In this document: in pieces, positions 24,576 to 32,218 of the stretch
Numbering within the stretch: position 1 is the stretch's first letter
Layout of the letters: each line of letters begins with the position of its first letter
From: a virus
Taxonomy: Duplodnaviria > Heunggongvirae > Uroviricota > Caudoviricetes > Crassvirales
IMG/VR virus record: IMGVR_UViG_3300020050_008479
DNA length: 32,218 nucleotides
Direction: 5' to 3' (one strand)
Made by a program: the position numbers and the translations under genes
The notes under the pieces: model-generated
What the model was told of the DNA's origin: nothing
The model's database searches: none
What the model saw: only the letters and a program-made list of their open reading frames with translations

Positions 24576-25203
24576 TAGGTATCTGCAAAGGTACCATTAA
24601 ATCTTTAACAATCAAAGATACTATGTCGTTAATCATATAACCTTCTAATGGATATTCATTATCTAATTCTTCACATGTAGAGAAGCATGACATTTCATTG
24701 GCTTTAGCAGGAGATTCAAATACACCTCTTGCAATAACTTTACTCATCATCATGAAGTTTACTCTCTTGGAATAAAAGTAAATTCTTCCATCTACATTTA
24801 TAGCAGTATAGATCTGATTGTTTAAGTATTTATTATGTCCAAGGAATGGGAATCTCTCCATTGCAACTGAATTAAATCCAGTTGTGAAGTTGTCTATACT
24901 TCTTACTGTAATCAAATCTTCTCTTCCTGAAATGTTAATTACAGTTGGTATAACTTGCTTAGTTCTAAGTATATGTCCAAACAAAGGAGATCCATTTATG
25001 GCGTCTACAACTTCTAAATCAAGACAAATTTCCGATAGACACGCTACCGGAATTGACTTGGTTATGTTACTGAATGTTTGCTTTATAAGCACCATTCTTT
25101 TTACGTCTATAAGATGAGCAAGATACTCATTAGTAAAGATGTCGTCATCAGTAGTAATTTGTAGCTTCTCTTTTATGTCGTAAATTATTTCTAGTTTAGT
25201 CAT
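24532..25203 (-). CDS. Tail ring / conserved crAss structural protein
   Basis: 223 aa with IYDIKEKL...DDD, KRMVLIKQ, IC-L-LE, YTAINVDGRIYF, VFESP and EYPLE...I blocks; located in the crAss tail cluster. Confidence 0.75.
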   Translation of the reverse strand: MTKLEIIYDIKEKLQITTDDDIFTNEYLAHLIDVKRMVLIKQTFSNITKSIPVACLSEICLDLEVVDAINGSPLFGHILRTKQVIPTVINISGREDLITVRSIDNFTTGFNSVAMERFPFLGHNKYLNNQIYTAINVDGRIYFYSKRVNFMMMSKVIARGVFESPAKANEMSCFSTCEELDNEYPLEGYMINDIVSLIVKDLMVPLQIPNDEKNDSTDDREEK

Positions 25204-26209
25204 TTTTGTATAATTTATTATTAAACAATAATCCTTCGTTATAAGGTATTGCTGTAACTCTTGATATATTATCTACTCCAAGTTTAATGACAGCAAGTCC
25301 ATTTGTCCAAGCTTCTTTCTGGAACCCTGACATGTAATTGAATACAGGTGCAGTTCTATCTCCTCCGAATCCACAGTTGTATGCAGATAAACCACCTTCA
25401 AGGTGAGTGTTGAATCTATGAGTGTGAAAGAAAACTACGTTACGTCTAAGTGTTGTCAAGTGCTTGTGAGCTGAATGAGTAGTACACCACATTCCGTGCA
25501 TAATCTCAGTGTCACCTATGATTACTTTTGCATTTCTCCAGTCTTTCTGGAAGTTATAACCTCTTCCTTCGAAGCATGCATGATAAGGACTTAATGATGG
25601 TTGATGTCCTAGTTTTGAATTGTCTGCTTGTTTTGTGTATTGCAAATACCAGTCTTCATGGTTACCGTAGAAATACTCTTTTTCTACCTTACGTGTTCCA
25701 ATAGCATCATCAATCTGATCCAAGTATTCATTGGCTTCCTTGTACTCTCTAGCTAAGTCATAACCAAGCACCGGCATTAATCCTTTAGCGTGCCTTGATA
25801 TTGAAGACATATCTAAAATGTCACCGGCCAATACTATTCCTTTTAAGTCAGGACAATCTTTAATCAACTTGATTACTGAAGCAAAAAAATCTTCATTAAC
25901 CCAAGGTAAGTGCAGACAGCCCAATACAATGTAGTTTCCTGCCGCGTATTTCCTTTTTAAGTACTTAGGCAATGCCGGAGAATTCCTTGCTTGATTCACT
26001 AAGTCAAGAGCCTTATCGTATTCACCTCTCTTCATTAGTTCTGACAATTCATTAATTCCTTTTGTTGAAGTTTCTGATCTGAATTCTTTCAATACCGCAG
26101 CACAGTCGTTTACATTTTCAATACCTAAAGCTTTTGCTAAAGCGTATTTTCCGAATTTCTTATAACCAGGCTTTTGTTCTAAAAACAATTTAATCTCTCT
26201 CTTATCCAT
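25196..26209 (-). CDS. Calcineurin-like metallophosphoesterase with N-terminal helical (possibly HTH) extension
   Basis: 337 aa. Motifs GCLHLP (C98 where DxH is usual), GDILD (D130), GNHE (182-185), MHG and FHTH (261-264). Confidence 0.85.
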   Translation of the reverse strand: MDKREIKLFLEQKPGYKKFGKYALAKALGIENVNDCAAVLKEFRSETSTKGINELSELMKRGEYDKALDLVNQARNSPALPKYLKRKYAAGNYIVLGCLHLPWVNEDFFASVIKLIKDCPDLKGIVLAGDILDMSSISRHAKGLMPVLGYDLAREYKEANEYLDQIDDAIGTRKVEKEYFYGNHEDWYLQYTKQADNSKLGHQPSLSPYHACFEGRGYNFQKDWRNAKVIIGDTEIMHGMWCTTHSAHKHLTTLRRNVVFFHTHRFNTHLEGGLSAYNCGFGGDRTAPVFNYMSGFQKEAWTNGLAVIKLGVDNISRVTAIPYNEGLLFNNKLYKND

Positions 26210-26275: not shown

Positions 26276-29200
26276 CTAATTGTTAGCTGCATCTTTTCTG
26301 TATCCTCCGAATGGATACGTTTCTCCTAGATTTCTCTGTAAGTGTGCTTCATCTGAAAAAGGAGTAAAAGAAAACTTTCTTACTTTCATCTCTATAGAAT
26401 CAAAGTTAGCTTTCATTCCTCCGTCAACATCTAAGACTCCTCCTCCCCATGCTCTTGTAGGATTTACAAGCCATGGTTTTGCCGGTAATGGAGAACTAGG
26501 AAACCACAATCCAAATGTAAAGAATCCTGGAATGTCTGGTATTGTTGGTCCATCAACAGTGTTTGTATTGGTTCTTTTTAAAACTCCATCAATGTAAAAT
26601 TCAACTCTATCAAAATGCCAGTCGTATCTTAATGTGTGATATTGCCCATCTGCTATATTGAATCCTACAGGTGTAAGGTTATCTCTATATTCTTCCCAGT
26701 ATGACGGATCTGTTATTGGAACGTCCCAGTTTTTCAATTCTCCTCTCCAAGTATTGCATTTCATGTTAGATAATGAAGGATCTGATAAAACGCCTCCATC
26801 TAGGTGAGAAGGAAACTCTATATCAATTTCGTGATTTCTAGTTACATAGAATCCATCTTCTACAGTTCCTTGCTGATGCAATCCTTCTACATTTATCATG
26901 TCTTGATAATTAAGTGATGTTGGATAAACCTCGTTATAAAAAAATGTCCATATTGCATACGCTACTCCAAGGTTATTTGGTATAAAAGCTTCAACTTCGT
27001 ATCTGCCAAACCCTGTTCTTTTATTGTAAACAACACATCCTCCAACTCTATTAGTCCATGGCTGTCCAAGTTTTGGATCGTCAGGATGAGTGTGAAATTT
27101 AGGAAGAGTTTCTCTGTCTACTCCTTGTTGAGTTCCTGAATACAAATCACCGTTTCCTTTTATTATTAATTCTCCTCCTCTTATGAAAACATTTTCAGTA
27201 ACAACTCCGCCATTAGCTCCACCCCAGGCCTTGTTTAACTTATAGTAATTTGTAGTTAATGTTTTTGGATCGCTAAAGTCATCTATAAATTGCTGAGTCT
27301 CCACTTCTGGAGCAACAATGTTTATCATGTAGTTTGACGACTGAGTAATTACAGATCTAACAAATAAGTTGTATTCTCCTAATGGAATTACGTCTGTCTT
27401 TGGAATTGTAACTCCTATAGATGTATTTGTTATTCCTCCTACGTATATCGATGGTATTGTATATTCAACTAATGTTGTTGTATTCTTTAACACAATTTCC
27501 GGAGTTGGCTTTACCTTTAATATTTCTATGATAGTTGGACTAGCGTAGCTTTTATACTTAACGTAAACATTTGCGAACGAACAGTTTATAGCAGAGTCAA
27601 CTAATCCTGCTGTAATTCCAGCTCCAACCTTTATTGGATAAGCCACTGTAGCCGGCGGTATAACAAGACCGGTAAAGTCAATAGTTAATTTAACTCCTGC
27701 TAAGTAAATGAAAGTGTATGCTGCTGATAATCCTTTTCTATTATAAACAAATTTGTTCCATCCAACAGAAACAGTTTCTAAAGAACCAAAAGTTTGAGTA
27801 ATTCCTAATTGCTTAAATTCAAGATAAACTTTATTGTCTACGCCAACATACATCGCTCCATAATCATCGTCAGTTCCGTAATGAAACAAAAATCTCTTTA
27901 CTCCTAATGTAGGTATATGTGCCCACATTGCAAAAATTCCGTCATTCTTTCCATCCGCTCCAACTAGATTGCGTGAATTAAATCCAGTTTCAGACGATGG
28001 AGATAATTGAAAGTAAGTGTCAGGACCAGTTATCTTCCATGATTTTATATTGTCAGTCTCTCCAAATAAACTATTGACACCTATCGCGTTACCTGATGTT
28101 ATGTTTTCAAACACATCGGAGTAGTTTTGTTTTAATTCAAAATGACCTCCAGTCTTTGGAGATACGAATTGAGAGTCAAGGAATTTAGATCCGTAAATTT
28201 CTAAAACATTGTCAGGATTAAGTGTATATCCTTGAAGAGAACTTACATAGAACACAGAGCTTAAATCTAATTCGTCTCTATTGTAAGACATCTTCCAGTA
28301 TCCATTAATACCTATGTATTTTTTAGATACAGATTTCCAGTTGCCATCAACCCCTATATGTCTGTCTGCTATTCTTTTCCATTCATTACTGTCTCCTACG
28401 TATCCTTTTTGATTCTTTACGTTTAGATATTTTGCTGGAGGTATTCCAACCGGTCCAGCCATTACTCTATTGTACACATATTCATTTGCTTCCCACAATG
28501 TAGTAATCGGGTTATAACCCATCATTCTAAATTTAAACTGAATCCAATTTTCTCCTTTATCTACAACCTCTAAAACACCATAAGACTTGTCTCTACTAGT
28601 AAAACTATTTCCAGAATTTTCTGAACTGTTTATCTGATAAGGTCCTCCTTCGAATTCAACATCTTGATCGAATGGTGATGCACACAGATTAGGTATAAGA
28701 TACTCTTCAGATATTTCAGAGTATTGTCTCCTAACTCCAAATTCATCGGTAGAGAAAATAGCGTTTCTTCCGTCATCCATTGCTTGCATGTGAGAATCTC
28801 CTGATACAATTGTAACGTTTTTAATTTGATTGTCATAAATATAGTTCGCTATCTCTTTCTGTTCTGTTGGATAACTACCCCAACTCATTCCTCCACTAAG
28901 AAAACTCATTCCTAATGGATTTTGAACATCTGCTACATAGCAAATTCCAGAGAACCAAATTATTGATTGACCTGCATTCTTAGCTGCTAATAACTCACTT
29001 TTAAGCCACGCTTTTTGAACAGTGCCTAATGTTGTCTTAGTTGGACTATCTACTGTTTGAATAGGGTCTCTGTGCGTCCTGTTGTTTGTCATGATGCATT
29101 TTACTCTACCCATATTCCAGCTAAAATAAATACTATCAGTTACCGGTGTATTTGAACCAAATGTGTAATGAGGAAAGTTTCTATCATAGAAAGGTATGAA

Positions 29201-30544
29201 TTGAGTGAAGTCGTCATTTTTTGTTGGATTAACTCCAATACTGTCATGATTGTCCGCCATATAGGCCATAGCCTGATTCTTAAAAAAATTAGACATCTTT
29301 GGTGACGCTAATGCTAAATCTGTTGCTTCACTGTAATCATGAGGATCTCCTGTGCCGACGTTTTCATAATGCAAGTCACCCATATGAACAAATAAATCTG
29401 CATTTTCTTCAAGCATTCTATCCCACGTTACGGCATTAGATCCAGTAAAGTTGCACGATCCTGTTATTATCTTAAAGCTTTTGTTTGTTGATGAAAGTGT
29501 TTTAAATGAAAATAAATTTCCAGACTCTGGAATTCCATCAACAATAAAACGTCCGTTGTATTTAGTGCTAGATTCTAGTCCTGTAAAATTATGAAGAGTT
29601 GTTCCTTGATTAGTTAAAGGATTTGCTACACTTAATGTAGATTCAATTACCGTATTAAAGTTCAAGTCTTTTGATATTTGAACCTTAACATTAGCATTAC
29701 TTCCAGCTACCTCTCTTGATAAAAATTTAGATGCCGGTATCCCTACATTTGTATAAGAAGAAGCGTCTGTTCCAAACCTTGTCGTTAATTCTCCATCTAT
29801 TACAAAATTTTTAGCCCTTATTGCAGCACTGTCTGCTGAACTAAATAACGTTTGATTACCTGATCCAGTATAACCAGATGTTAAAAAGTTATCAAATTTT
29901 ACAACTAACGCTACGGTTATACTGCTTGGATGATTTGCAGTAGTGTCTAATATCGGAACTTTCATATTTGTCATATTGTCAAAATACAAGGCGTTCTTTC
30001 CTTTTATTGTTTGAATTCCAAACGTTCCTGCTTGTACTGTGGCTACCCTATTTGTTCCTAATGCGGTAGAGTCATTCCAAGACGTAACTCTGTTTGAACC
30101 ATCTAATACAAGCCCTTCTGAATCGAAGTCTAGAAACGCTCCGGAAATTGTTGGCTTTATAGTGTCAACTGAATTTGCAATGTGTCCGTTGCCTAACTCT
30201 GTACCGGATGGTAACCACCTGTCTGCCAACCAATTTGTTAATGCATTTCTATCAGTATCTCCCAACGCACTATTATAAAATGATATAGTAGGCATCAAAC
30301 CTTTAAACCAAGATCCCCCATTGTAATCTCCTCCGAAGTAAATATTTTCTAAATACCTAGTGCTACCTAATTTGGGAGTTGATACAATCAACTCCCCATT
30401 AAGATATACATTAAGTAATGCTTGATCAAATGTCAATACATAAATACACATTGAATCAGTTAAAGGTCCTATGGTATATGGATTCTTGCCACTTACCGTA
30501 GCTTTGCTGTCAGTAACAGCTCCTATCATTACATTTTTTATCAT
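26276..30544 (-). CDS. Multidomain protein: permuted LamG + FN3 + PhoD-type phosphatase/phosphodiesterase + fibre-like repeats + Ig/LamG + GH16 glycoside hydrolase
   Basis: 1422 aa. PhoD motifs GSC (C364), GDLHY (D390, Y393), DNHD (431-434), SGDSH (D583, H585). GH16 motifs FIDDFS (1086), EIDIE (E1239-D1241-E1243) and YHTLRYDW...VEFYIDG. LamG signatures VYLNG...FGG...FKG...YNSAL and WNKFVY...IYLAG. No signal peptide visible. Confidence 0.85.
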   Translation of the reverse strand: MIKNVMIGAVTDSKATVSGKNPYTIGPLTDSMCIYVLTFDQALLNVYLNGELIVSTPKLGSTRYLENIYFGGDYNGGSWFKGLMPTISFYNSALGDTDRNALTNWLADRWLPSGTELGNGHIANSVDTIKPTISGAFLDFDSEGLVLDGSNRVTSWNDSTALGTNRVATVQAGTFGIQTIKGKNALYFDNMTNMKVPILDTTANHPSSITVALVVKFDNFLTSGYTGSGNQTLFSSADSAAIRAKNFVIDGELTTRFGTDASSYTNVGIPASKFLSREVAGSNANVKVQISKDLNFNTVIESTLSVANPLTNQGTTLHNFTGLESSTKYNGRFIVDGIPESGNLFSFKTLSSTNKSFKIITGSCNFTGSNAVTWDRMLEENADLFVHMGDLHYENVGTGDPHDYSEATDLALASPKMSNFFKNQAMAYMADNHDSIGVNPTKNDDFTQFIPFYDRNFPHYTFGSNTPVTDSIYFSWNMGRVKCIMTNNRTHRDPIQTVDSPTKTTLGTVQKAWLKSELLAAKNAGQSIIWFSGICYVADVQNPLGMSFLSGGMSWGSYPTEQKEIANYIYDNQIKNVTIVSGDSHMQAMDDGRNAIFSTDEFGVRRQYSEISEEYLIPNLCASPFDQDVEFEGGPYQINSSENSGNSFTSRDKSYGVLEVVDKGENWIQFKFRMMGYNPITTLWEANEYVYNRVMAGPVGIPPAKYLNVKNQKGYVGDSNEWKRIADRHIGVDGNWKSVSKKYIGINGYWKMSYNRDELDLSSVFYVSSLQGYTLNPDNVLEIYGSKFLDSQFVSPKTGGHFELKQNYSDVFENITSGNAIGVNSLFGETDNIKSWKITGPDTYFQLSPSSETGFNSRNLVGADGKNDGIFAMWAHIPTLGVKRFLFHYGTDDDYGAMYVGVDNKVYLEFKQLGITQTFGSLETVSVGWNKFVYNRKGLSAAYTFIYLAGVKLTIDFTGLVIPPATVAYPIKVGAGITAGLVDSAINCSFANVYVKYKSYASPTIIEILKVKPTPEIVLKNTTTLVEYTIPSIYVGGITNTSIGVTIPKTDVIPLGEYNLFVRSVITQSSNYMINIVAPEVETQQFIDDFSDPKTLTTNYYKLNKAWGGANGGVVTENVFIRGGELIIKGNGDLYSGTQQGVDRETLPKFHTHPDDPKLGQPWTNRVGGCVVYNKRTGFGRYEVEAFIPNNLGVAYAIWTFFYNEVYPTSLNYQDMINVEGLHQQGTVEDGFYVTRNHEIDIEFPSHLDGGVLSDPSLSNMKCNTWRGELKNWDVPITDPSYWEEYRDNLTPVGFNIADGQYHTLRYDWHFDRVEFYIDGVLKRTNTNTVDGPTIPDIPGFFTFGLWFPSSPLPAKPWLVNPTRAWGGGVLDVDGGMKANFDSIEMKVRKFSFTPFSDEAHLQRNLGETYPFGGYRKDAANN

Positions 30545-30554
30545 GTTATTTTTT

Positions 30555-30875
30555 TTATTCTGGATTAGTATATGTTATCCACTCGTCTCCATTTGCTGGG
30601 ATGCCGGTTGGAACTGACAAAGATACTGTTTTATTTCCAGTTAATATTGCAGAAATTACAGGTCTTGTTGGGTCTGATTTATCTATTGATATATTGTCTC
30701 CTTCTATGACATCTATTAAAACTCCTGTTCCGCCTCCTGTTCCTGCGCAATTCTTGAGACTTATAATAAGTTCCATTACTCTTCTCATGTCAGTAGCGCT
30801 AAGTGTTTTGCACTTTTGAAATCTTAATTGAAGAGCTTGCGCTTCAGGTATGATGTTATTACATTCTATTGCCAT
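30555..30875 (-). CDS. Short tail-fibre anchor/adaptor-like protein
   Basis: 106 aa: three-Cys helical N-terminus, Gly linker (GTGGGTG), the fibre linker motif IEGDNISIDKSDPTRPVISA, and PTGIPANGDEWITY. Confidence 0.6.
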   Translation of the reverse strand: MAIECNNIIPEAQALQLRFQKCKTLSATDMRRVMELIISLKNCAGTGGGTGVLIDVIEGDNISIDKSDPTRPVISAILTGNKTVSLSVPTGIPANGDEWITYTNPE

Positions 30876-30938: not shown

Positions 30939-31103
30939 TTAATTTAATTTATTATAAAATTTTCTTGTTTCTAAATCAAAGTATGGGTTTTCCATTTCTT
31001 CGGTGCGTAATTCCTCGATAGCTATTTCGTTGTCTTTAAAATTGCTTGTATCCTGAGTAGCATATAATTCTTTGCCTTCTAAGTTGATTATTGTATATGT
31101 CAT
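30939..31103 (-). CDS. Small acidic protein, possible tail-fibre chaperone (below the ORF-track size cutoff)
   Basis: Hand translation: MTYTIINLEGKELYATQDTSNFKDNEIAIEELRTEEMENPYFDLETRKFYNKLN* (54 aa). Its ATG directly abuts the fibre gene stop (TAA ATG). Confidence 0.75.
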   Translation of the reverse strand: MTYTIINLEGKELYATQDTSNFKDNEIAIEELRTEEMENPYFDLETRKFYNKLN

Positions 31104-32216
31104 TTAGTTTACCATTTTAATTGAGTGTATCATTGTTGTGTCTGTAGCGTCTGAATTTTGCAATGAAAAAAACCAATATTGCGTAACACTTGGGTCGTAT
31201 GTAATTACTCCTATTTCAGCAGACGAAACAGCCTCATCGTTTACTGATGAGTATGCTGGGTTATAACTCATTAGTTGCCCATTTTGTAGTGTGAAATTAC
31301 GAACAAAAAGAGCGGATCTTGAAGACGTCGACGATGTAAAAAATCCGATATTAGTAGCTGTAGCAAAATCATCTACTGTGTTTACCCTTACTTTAATAGT
31401 TACCGTTCCCACGGTCCCTAATTTAGATATTCTAGCCTTTAGATTAGGCATGCATGAAGATGGTAATTTACCACCAGCAATAGTATAAGTATGCATTAGA
31501 ACCTCGCTTACACTGCCTGTATTTGTACTTGTTGGCGTGTCTATTATAACTGTCTTAACAGCGTCAAAAGTAGCATCATAAACAGCATCTTCACTCGGCG
31601 ACTTATCTGTTACTCCGTTAGTGATTGTTTGGGTAACTATGTCTGTCGTAGCTAAAGTGTAAGTCCCTGTCACAGTCTTTGCAGGGAAGTTTAATGTTGT
31701 AGTTTGAACTGGATCGTCGATTATTATATTGGTACTCCCTGACGTATTTTGTTTACTTACTTTAAATTCGCCATTATCAACAGCCACTCTCGATGAAATA
31801 GTTGGTGAGTTTGAAAAAATATCAGCATATCCTTTTCCTACAAAAGAACCTCCATCATTACCTGACCCGTCTGAAATGTAGCTACTAAAATTCAATTCTC
31901 CATCTTCATCTCCAAAAAAGATATAGCTATTTCCGCCATCTAATTCTGCATAACCCCCAACATCTATAACTTTCTGTAAATCAATAGAACTATTTAAATA
32001 CTCTTTTGTTATTAATATCTTTCCTGTTGAATCTGCATCAATTAAACCAGTAGTTAAACTTGGAGCTTCTACAGACCCATTTAGCCTAACTTTAAACGCA
32101 TCACTTCTAGTAAGCACAGTATAAGTATTATCTGCATTTTGAATAGTTCCATTACCTACCGTAAATAAAGCTTTAGTAGGTACAGTATTAAAATCTAAAA
32201 TAGATTCTGAAATAAT
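31104..32216 (-). CDS. Tail fibre / receptor-binding protein (5'-partial; true start is outside the window)
   Basis: The frame is open to the right edge upstream of the GTG at 32117 (IISESILDFNTVPTKALFTVGNGT...TRSDAFKVRLNG). LFTVGNG...RSDAFKV resembles the segment that follows YadA-like head repeats in Bacteroidota-associated fibres. The beta-rich C-terminal domain looks like a fibre tip. Confidence 0.75.
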   Translation of the reverse strand: MISESILDFNTVPTKALFTVGNGTIQNADNTYTVLTRSDAFKVRLNGSVEAPSLTTGLIDADSTGKILITKEYLNSSIDLQKVIDVGGYAELDGGNSYIFFGDEDGELNFSSYISDGSGNDGGSFVGKGYADIFSNSPTISSRVAVDNGEFKVSKQNTSGSTNIIIDDPVQTTTLNFPAKTVTGTYTLATTDIVTQTITNGVTDKSPSEDAVYDATFDAVKTVIIDTPTSTNTGSVSEVLMHTYTIAGGKLPSSCMPNLKARISKLGTVGTVTIKVRVNTVDDFATATNIGFFTSSTSSRSALFVRNFTLQNGQLMSYNPAYSSVNDEAVSSAEIGVITYDPSVTQYWFFSLQNSDATDTTMIHSIKMVN

Positions 32217-32218
32217 AT

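Follow-up and report, generated by a model that had tools for sequence, protein, structure and literature searches.

A PhoD-Type Phosphoesterase Domain Fused to a Lichenase-Like Glycoside Hydrolase in the Morphogenesis Module of a Marine crAss-Like Phage

Introduction

Virion-borne depolymerases and phosphodiesterases are known, and genes for PhoD-like or purple acid phosphatase (PAP)-like proteins have already been annotated in phage structural modules. The gene described here, in which a PhoD phosphoesterase domain is joined to a family 16 glycoside hydrolase (GH16) domain, is nothing categorically new. It lies at positions 26276 to 30544, on the minus strand, of a 32,218-nucleotide stretch of phage DNA (IMG/VR record IMGVR_UViG_3300020050_008479, Crassvirales), and it encodes a 1422-amino-acid protein. 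The whole stretch is referred to as the window in subsequent discussion. An earlier note, made from the letters of the window alone, had recognized the fusion and proposed that the protein is a two-enzyme appendage displayed on the virion. Comparison with related sequences favors display on the particle and indicates a PhoD metal site that departs from the canonical one.

Purple acid phosphatases are active two-metal enzymes with a G-N-H-(D/E) motif. The PhoD of Bacillus subtilis (2YEQ; PF09423) is an Fe3+/2 Ca2+ phosphodiesterase/phosphomonoesterase whose metal ligands C180, D207, D265, D266, N271, N272, and D436 have been probed by mutagenesis (PMC4223295). Phage phoD genes have been published as phosphate-acquisition auxiliary metabolic genes (AMGs), one of them active on p-nitrophenyl phosphate (pNPP); these proteins have canonical D-D-H and D-x-H ligands and are read as phosphate scavenging (PMC10987575). 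Microbacterium phage Rowlf has a PAP-like gene within its structural module, with a function that the authors give as unknown (PMC12352085). Thermobifida phage P1312 encodes a metallophosphatase beside its tail genes, and teichoic acid has been proposed as the target of that enzyme (PMC4569894). GH16 proteins of Vibrio phages are annotated only as "putative glycosyl hydrolase," with one paper mentioning plaque haloes. No biochemical characterization of the GH16 proteins of Vibrio phages vB_VpaP_KF1 (KF1) and pVco-14 or Pseudomonas phage STP12 was found in the literature searched. Nor did literature searches find a paper on a fusion of PhoD to GH16, on the derived metal site, or on the putative adaptor cassette described below. 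Searches for tail proteins of the GH16 type in phages and for PhoD among crAss-like phages were likewise without result.

Results

Two hydrolase-type domains in one chain

The 1422-amino-acid open reading frame (ORF) matched the Pfam families PhoD (6e-15; 55.6 bits, cutoff 27), Laminin_G_3 (2.7e-6; above the curated cutoff), and Glyco_hydro_16 (8.4e-6; 25.8 bits, cutoff 22), as well as PHROGs families labeled "hydrolase" and "phosphodiesterase." Its start codon, M1, is conserved across homologues. The parts of the ORF are as follows, in window positions.

26276..30544, minus strand: whole ORF, 1422 amino acids, comprising PhoD (with a nested LamG), a triple repeat, a LamG-like region, a small beta region, and GH16
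30476..30544, minus strand: residues 1-23, probably the opening strand of the FN3-like N-terminal domain of PhoD, from a stand-alone-PhoD profile and conserved N-termini
29720..30472, minus strand: residues 25-275, LamG-like region within the PhoD N-terminal domain, a lead from a partial Pfam match and the ESM Atlas
28430..29710, minus strand: residues 279-705, remainder of the PhoD N-terminal domain and the PhoD/purple-acid-phosphatase-type catalytic domain
29240..29254, minus strand: D431-N432-H433-D434-S435, derived motif in place of W-D-D-H-x-F-G-x-N-N
28274..28426, minus strand: residues 707-757, three short G-x-W-K repeats (units at 711-755)
27275..28267, minus strand: residues 760-1090, LamG-like and then small beta region, a lead from the ESM Atlas and Pfam matches of homologues
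26297..27274, minus strand: residues 1091-1416, lichenase-like GH16 beta-jelly-roll domain
26816..26830, minus strand: E1239-I-D1241-I-E1243, GH16 catalytic motif

Both enzyme folds could be modeled. The AlphaFold2 model of residues 1040 to 1422 (pLDDT 87.4) has short strands ahead of a GH16 core that superimposed on nearly the whole chains of Bacillus lichenases (Z 23.5-24.0, rmsd 2.3-2.5 Å, 210-215 residues aligned). For example, 215 of the 220 residues of 3WVJ were aligned at Z 24.0 and an rmsd of 2.4 Å. A GH16 profile matched the lichenases with an E value of 1.4e-11. The catalytic residues E1239, D1241, and E1243 lie on one predicted strand (model strand 192-205) and were invariant both in 21 full-length homologues (29-64% identity) and in 50 family representatives, in agreement with the intact ExDxE triad described in the earlier note. 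The phage domain shares the beta-jelly-roll fold and an identical hexapeptide, E-I-D-I-E-F, with the Bacillus 1,3-1,4-beta-glucanases (1GBG, 3O5S, 1U0A, and 3WVJ). It differs from them in about 26 extra residues between the W-T-F-F strand and the catalytic strand, in other insertions that bring it to about 330 residues versus 214, in an added conserved C-terminal G-E-T-Y-P tail, and in being borne on a 1422-amino-acid protein.

A profile search of 1.84 billion representative sequences found 735 members of this GH16 family at an E value of ≤0.001 and 169 at ≤1e-30. PF00722 was matched by 40 of the 49 top representatives (best 1.7e-32). Pfam domains co-occurring in these 49 were LamG (19), SPRY (7), PhoD (5), GDSL esterase (3), and Phage_min_tail (1). 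By these counts the PhoD fusion is a minority variant of the GH16 family.

Two further architectures were noted among GH16-module proteins. One protein of 1,230 residues (P0086) has a domain like the dimeric head fiber gp29 of crAss001 (phmmer with gp29, E 1.2e-6). In the GH16 alignment A7, one member matched Pfam Head_fiber_dimeric (4.6e-8), and another was fused to Phage_min_tail. Therefore, the site at which the GH16 module is mounted may differ among phages, being the head in some and the tail in others.

A derived PhoD metal site

The AlphaFold2 model of residues 275 to 705 (pLDDT 86.6) contains an FN3-like N-terminal domain and the metallophosphatase beta-sandwich fold. Its best match in the Protein Data Bank was B. 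subtilis PhoD, 2YEQ (Foldseek E 2e-20; VIA Z 28.9, rmsd 3.2 Å, 380 residues aligned), although the alignments stop short of the C-terminal capping helix of 2YEQ. A profile of the homologues matched 2YEQ with an E value of 9.7e-17. Purple acid phosphatases scored lower in structural comparison, at Z of about 24 to 25, and the domain is closer to PhoD than to these enzymes by both sequence and structure.

All ten residues named in the earlier note, seven in the PhoD domain and the three of the GH16 triad, were found at the positions given and were invariant in the 21 full-length homologues. Of the seven, C364, D390, Y393, and H585 align to the Fe3+ ligands C180, D207, Y210, and H438 of 2YEQ, the roles of Y210 and H438 having been assigned in this analysis from the PAP-like ligand set (PMC4223295). 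The others are D431, H433, and D583. The second-site ligands are D431, N432, and D583. In the profile alignment D431-N432-H433 falls on D265-D266-H267, so that of the CaA site (D265, D266, and D436) D431 and D583 are kept, and D266 is replaced by Asn, N432, in 19 of the 21 homologues.

The ligands named in the earlier note were thus correct. However, its description of the set as near complete left out N271 and N272, the ligands of the third metal (CaB), which align to G437 and V438 in variable columns. Because these ligands are missing, the set is less complete than claimed and is not near canonical. The same 19 of 21 fused homologues that share D-N-H-D-S lack the Asn-Asn pair. In contrast, the canonical W-D-D-H-x-F-G-x-N-N, or a near variant, is present in the two longest homologues (2,071 and 2,076 amino acids) and in all stand-alone relatives, and an Asn-Asn or Asp-Asn CaB pair is found in every stand-alone relative and in the two homologues of about 2,070 residues. 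This distribution indicates that loss of the third-metal site is derived, with the Fe site and the second site (Asp, Asn, Asp) fixed. On sequence comparison the PhoD site is probably a derived, two-metal variant.

Motif D-N-H-D looks like the Asn-His-(Asp/Glu) motif of the two-metal purple acid phosphatases. The plant enzymes 1KBP and 1XZW share with the phage domain the fold, a tyrosinate-type Fe site, that third motif, and, probably, a two-metal site. The phage protein differs from them in having Cys for Asp as the first ligand and Asp for His in the last motif, G-D-x-H. The features shared with B. subtilis PhoD are the two-domain fold, the Cys-type Fe site (Cys, Asp, Tyr, His), and the G-D-x-x-Y and G-D-x-H motifs. 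Unlike B. subtilis PhoD, the phage protein has no Tat signal, has Asn for D266 and lacks N271 and N272 in common with its subclade, carries a LamG-like domain inserted within the N-terminal domain, and is joined to a GH16 protein. A phosphoesterase domain of 25 to 31% identity is also found in gp26 of phage Rowlf, in Streptomyces cluster BE phages, and in Anabaena phage Elbi (PHROG 13624, 24476, and 25497), and the Rowlf gene lies between those for the major tail protein and the head-to-tail adaptor. In contrast to the protein studied here, none of these PhoD/PAP-like proteins has a GH16 domain.

Mean pairwise identity among homologues was 0.61 for the GH16 domain, 0.51 for PhoD, and 0.29 to 0.43 for the remaining regions. 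It is plausible that the PhoD domain is catalytically active, because it is the second most conserved part of the protein.

Lectin-like regions, repeats, and N-terminus

The earlier note had listed two LamG domains and also Ig-like domains, the latter being candidates only. Both LamG-like assignments are leads, from a partial Pfam match and language-model look-alikes. The Laminin_G_3 match covers residues 35 to 96 and the C-terminal half of the profile only. ESM Atlas look-alikes of residues 25 to 275 were viral LamG clusters (score 0.96), and those of residues 760 to 960 were LamG clusters (score 0.90). The region of residues 760 to 1090 has Pfam LamG and SPRY matches in homologues. The "fiber-type repeats" of the earlier note amounted to the three short G-x-W-K units. 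Its statement that there is no Sec or Tat signal held up, as direct reading of the N-terminus found neither a twin-arginine motif nor a hydrophobic leader.

Origin of the fusion

The fusion is not an assembly chimera, because the 21 full-length homologues are collinear with it and come from independent assemblies (ENA, JGI, NCBI, and Logan). Stand-alone phage GH16 proteins of about 890 to 1,017 residues begin with the same three G-x-W-K repeats as residues 711 to 755. Their first residues align to residues 707 to 714 of the 1422-amino-acid protein, and the alignment continues through to its end. Therefore, residues 707 to 1422 correspond to a complete, pre-existing phage protein, and the alignments identify the PhoD module (residues 1 to 706) as a graft onto the N-terminus of such a protein. 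The stand-alone-PhoD profile matched the homologue P0020 at the equivalent of residues 3 to 23 (conditional E 0.0017) and resumed near residue 279, which indicates that the LamG-like region (about residues 25 to 275) is an insertion in the PhoD N-terminal domain. On the 1422-amino-acid protein itself (P0001) this N-terminal match was not reported.

The array is extended in the longer homologues P0021, P0022, P0023, and P0028 (the last at L006 10001-16231), which have 2,045 to 2,076 residues. P0021 and P0028 have an extra N-terminal GDSL/SGNH esterase, P0023 and P0028 have an extra SPRY domain, and these latter two retain the canonical W-D-D-H..N-N motif. In L006 a patatin-like gene of 797 amino acids lies two genes downstream.

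A small partner gene

A small ORF immediately precedes the PhoD-GH16 gene.

30555..30875, minus strand: 106-amino-acid partner ORF, 10 nucleotides upstream of the PhoD-GH16 gene, with a conserved C-terminal peptide

The peptide reads V-S-x-x-x-P-T-G-I-P-x-x-G-x-E-W-I-x-Y. All seven metagenomic contexts for which DNA was available had a small ORF (69 to 132 amino acids) 3 to 10 nucleotides upstream of the large gene, and a small ORF with the motif also precedes the GH16 genes of pVco-14 and STP12, the latter matching the motif profile with an E value of 1.4e-11. These small ORFs are unrelated to one another at their N-termini, whereas their C-termini have V-S-T-x-P-P-T-G-I-P-x-D-G-x-E-W-I-x-Y in common. 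A scan of IMG/VR with an exact degenerate (IUPAC) pattern of the peptide found five loci. In all five the match was at the C-terminal end of a small ORF, followed by a GH16-type ORF wherever sequence farther downstream was available; three of these ORFs were complete with E-x-D-x-E, and two were ended by the contig. The small ORFs found elsewhere are the following.

L007 9667-9993; L006 9714-9953; L016 9674-9997; L015 9774-9998
L014 9703-9990; L013 9663-9998; L011 4227-4457; L022 3362-3583; L017-L021

Across these loci the small partner ORF moves with the enzyme gene among unrelated phage backbones, which would be consistent with the 106-amino-acid protein being a backbone-specific adaptor with a shared docking peptide. 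Complex prediction for the 106-amino-acid protein with the GH16 module gave a score of 0.00 and no verdict either way; a docking site, if one exists, may lie in the internal repeat, outside that module. The idea that the peptide is a fourth repeat unit was dropped when the motif profile found nothing significant in the large proteins. Identification of the 106-amino-acid ORF as crAss001 THB, HFD, or HFT was rejected for want of similarity.

The cassette in other phages

Another crAss-like phage likewise has the PhoD-GH16 gene between the capsid genes and the Ring_2, Ring_1, and muzzle genes. In non-crAss phages of about 40 kb it follows the portal and DUF6712 genes and adjoins lysis or terminase genes; a relative of one of these phages has a SPRY-GH16 protein in the same slot instead. 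A 78-kb contig with queuosine genes carries the gene at 64% identity over its full length.

GH16 homologues in cultured phages have 34 to 37% identity over 370 to 450 residues, with R-N-H-E-I-D-I-E conserved. The proteins of KF1 (gp16), pVco-14 (gp034), and STP12 (913 amino acids, "putative glycosyl hydrolase") have the homologous GH16 module, and those of pVco-14 and STP12 also have the N-terminal G-x-W-K repeats and the upstream small motif ORF. Unlike the protein studied here, they have no PhoD module, are 900 to 913 residues long, and belong to T7-like or siphovirus backbones of Proteobacteria phages. KF1 gp16 occupies the T7 tail-fiber slot, following the 203-amino-acid gp15 and preceding the terminase gene. 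KF1 gp15 (L010 5205-5816, "tail fiber protein") consists only of the T7 tail-fiber N-terminal domain (Pfam 8.8e-17) and a short stalk with a weak YadA_stalk match; for the distal portion of the fiber, gp16 would be the sole candidate. In pVco-14 and STP12 the GH16 gene lies in a siphovirus tail-tip cluster, with the tape-measure gene on one side and, downstream, a large ORF that is annotated "putative tail protein" in pVco-14 and is unannotated, with 999 amino acids, in STP12. The cultured carriers of the cassette also include STP9, like STP12 a Pseudomonas/Stutzerimonas phage.

The source phage and neighboring genes

The window is bases 12711 to 44928 of one 97,718-bp contig of about 34% G+C, and its long ORFs are on the minus strand without exception. 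The major capsid protein has 52% identity to counterparts in crAss-like phages; neighboring proteins have Pfam crAss auxiliary capsid, Ring_2, Ring_1, muzzle, and cargo domains; and the 1,378-amino-acid muzzle protein has 40% identity to gp082 of Cellulophaga phage phi14:2 (Crassvirales, Steigviridae). By these similarities the source, a marine phage, is crAss-like and kin of phi14:2. A megablast search of the neighboring 7 kb against cultured phages found no near-identical phage. Read in the direction of transcription, the genes come in this order.

Portal, 543-amino-acid ORF, 387-amino-acid ORF, Peptidase_M15 endolysin
Major capsid, crAss001 gp33-like protein, ring protein, auxiliary capsid
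ORFs of 182, 921, 54, and 106 amino acids, then the 1422-amino-acid PhoD-GH16 ORF
337-amino-acid metallophosphoesterase, Ring_2, 179-amino-acid ORF, Ring_1, muzzle
Cargo proteins, 2,168-amino-acid ORF

Thus, the PhoD-GH16 gene is flanked by capsid and auxiliary capsid genes on one side and by the Ring_2, Ring_1, and muzzle genes on the other, and the endolysin is encoded away from it. The earlier note had placed the gene among fiber genes. However, its neighbors are the 921- and 106-amino-acid ORFs, which belong to no known family, the metallophosphoesterase, and the ring and muzzle genes; none is a demonstrated fiber gene. Tblastn searches with the 1422-, 921-, and 106-amino-acid ORFs found no matches in the tail-fiber region of phi14:2. 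A scan for sigma-70 promoters and terminators gave no usable signal, with fewer promoter-like sites than the shuffled expectation.

Several features of the neighborhood were recorded in addition. The metallophosphoesterase gene (window 25196-26209, minus strand) is directly downstream of the PhoD-GH16 gene, and its product has 28% identity over 145 residues (E 6e-8) to phi14:2 gp086, for which the phi14:2 record gives no tandem mass spectrometry (MS/MS) annotation. The first motif of the metallophosphoesterase is G-C-L-H versus G-D-L-H in gp086, with Cys for the usual Asp, like the first ligand of PhoD. An acidic 54-amino-acid ORF (window 30939-31103, minus strand) begins straight after the stop codon of the 921-amino-acid ORF, with an AT-rich gap between it and the 106-amino-acid ORF. 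No homologues of the crAss001 tail-hub proteins THA and THB (gp38 and gp39) were detectable in this phage, and the interval expected to hold them (G000:C1 10269-13825; L001; window 31104-32218 and beyond) holds the 182- and 921-amino-acid ORFs. Neither ORF has a Pfam match, and the 921-amino-acid ORF has one weak PHROG match, to a family of unknown function. Both are candidates for hub or fiber proteins. The 2,168-amino-acid ORF is in the same place as the giant ORFs of phi14:2 (gp077) and crAss001 (gp47, "putative RNA-polymerase subunit").

Discussion

We put at slightly better than even the chance that the 1422-amino-acid protein is a particle-borne two-enzyme protein, on tail or head, encoded by a late gene of the morphogenesis module. 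Display on the virion is favored by the morphogenesis context of the gene in five kinds of phage backbone and by the tail-gene slots of its relatives in cultured phages. The partner ORF that travels with the gene, an endolysin encoded separately, the lectin-like domains, and the absence of any export signal point the same way. The leaderless, multidomain protein with its two hydrolase-type domains would be mounted on the virion, where the conserved C-terminal peptide of the 106-amino-acid protein would dock it to the particle. The GH16 domain, once extracellular, would cut a beta-linked glycan. The PhoD domain, with two metals like a purple acid phosphatase, would cut phosphodiester or phosphomonoester groups of capsule, lipopolysaccharide, or matrix polymers, and the lectin-like domains would hold the polymer while the particle reaches the cell surface.

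Several points weigh against display on the particle or against a working second enzyme. No recognized virion-anchoring domain was found in the protein with Pfam or PHROGs, and the chain opens with a strand of PhoD. Conservation is highest in the GH16 domain, which Vibrio, Pseudomonas, and flavobacterial phages have in common, and in this it differs from a receptor-binding tip specific to a strain. Lysis genes (lysozyme, holin, or GH19) adjoin the gene in several phages. The equivalent interval of phi14:2 is a mixture of structural proteins verified by mass spectrometry and proteins undetected in virions, the latter including gp086 to gp090 and with them the syntenic metallophosphoesterase, and therefore gene position alone is weak evidence. 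KF1 gp15 was not detected by the small-ORF motif profile, so that the evidence for KF1 is positional only. In B. subtilis PhoD, the substitutions N271A and N272A, at the positions of the two CaB ligands absent from the phage protein, abolished activity, and D266A drastically reduced it (PMC4223295). The appendage proposed in the earlier note remains the best reading of the comparative context, with the qualifications that no virion proteomics or imaging was found here for any family member and that the PhoD site is not near canonical.

Some of these points would also suit a soluble enzyme that is not part of the virion but is made late, is released at lysis, and degrades capsule, biofilm matrix, or organic phosphate near the lysing cell. 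Progeny escape or nutrient scavenging would be the benefit, though we consider this explanation unlikely, benefit included. The missing anchor domain, the adjoining lysozyme, holin, or GH19 genes, and the nondetection of gp086 to gp090 in virions are consistent with it, as is the treatment of phage phoD genes as phosphate-acquisition AMGs, one with activity on pNPP (PMC10987575). However, the partner ORF is conserved and tightly coupled to the enzyme gene in unrelated backbones, the cultured relatives are in the T7 fiber slot or the siphovirus tail-tip cluster, and one relative is fused to Phage_min_tail. The size of the protein and its lectin-like domains are typical of particle appendages, and with no export signal its release would depend wholly on lysis. 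Least probable by far is a role as a phosphate-acquisition AMG, in which PhoD, either in the cytoplasm or after export, would raise the phosphate supply of the host during infection. The Pfam match and the practice of AMG surveys, which class phage phoD genes in this way, speak for it. Yet the protein shares with the published viral phoD AMGs its Pfam family and differs from them in being a fusion to a glycosidase and lectin-like domains, in its derived, noncanonical metal site, and in its location within the morphogenesis module, in a cassette with an adaptor-like ORF; it also has no signal peptide. The rejection of a standard cytoplasmic phosphate-stress AMG in the earlier note is therefore reasonable, whereas its alternative of a particle-borne enzyme that releases nutrients found no support.

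Whether the PhoD domain works as an enzyme is a separate question whose answers overlap with those on location. It could be a dead module that binds phosphate or phospho-glycans, in which case it would amount to one more lectin-like domain on a GH16 enzyme, or simply on an adhesin. The loss of the Asn-Asn CaB ligands in 19 of 21 homologues, the Asn in place of the second Asp of D-D-H, the effects of the corresponding substitutions in B. subtilis PhoD, and the retention of the canonical motif in stand-alone relatives and the two longest homologues would all fit such a module. Even so, we regard binding alone as a minority prospect. C364, D390, Y393, D431, H433, D583, and H585 are invariant, N432 is nearly so, and D-N-H-D-S is itself fixed. 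The catalytic domain is conserved above the lectin-like parts, the motif resembles G-N-H-(D/E) of the active two-metal purple acid phosphatases, and the fold matches those enzymes at Z of about 25.

A more far-reaching proposal, which taken as a whole we hold to be possible but doubtful, is that two genes form a portable cassette, which equips the particles of unrelated phage lineages with swappable arrays of enzymes, the lineages being crAss-like phages, lambda-like siphoviruses, T7-like podoviruses, and flavobacterial phages of about 40 kb. One gene would encode a small, backbone-specific adaptor ending in P-T-G-I-P-x-D-G-x-E-W, and the other would encode a GH16-tipped protein able to carry PhoD, GDSL esterase, SPRY, or LamG domains. 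The PhoD module would be a new two-metal subtype that, without the third calcium, would cleave phosphodiester bridges in surface glycans.

The derived D-N-H-D-S site is a natural test of whether PhoD requires its third metal. The GH16 module and the partner ORF are common to cultured Vibrio and Pseudomonas phages, and thus location, docking, and substrate are open to bench testing. Virome surveys tally phage phoD genes as phosphate-acquisition AMGs. Since a PhoD domain here forms part of a morphogenesis-module protein together with a glycosidase, some of these counts may represent particle enzymes that degrade the host surface or matrix. If the portable-cassette proposal were true, many genes labeled "viral phoD AMGs" would encode enzymes of the virion instead of serving to scavenge phosphate.

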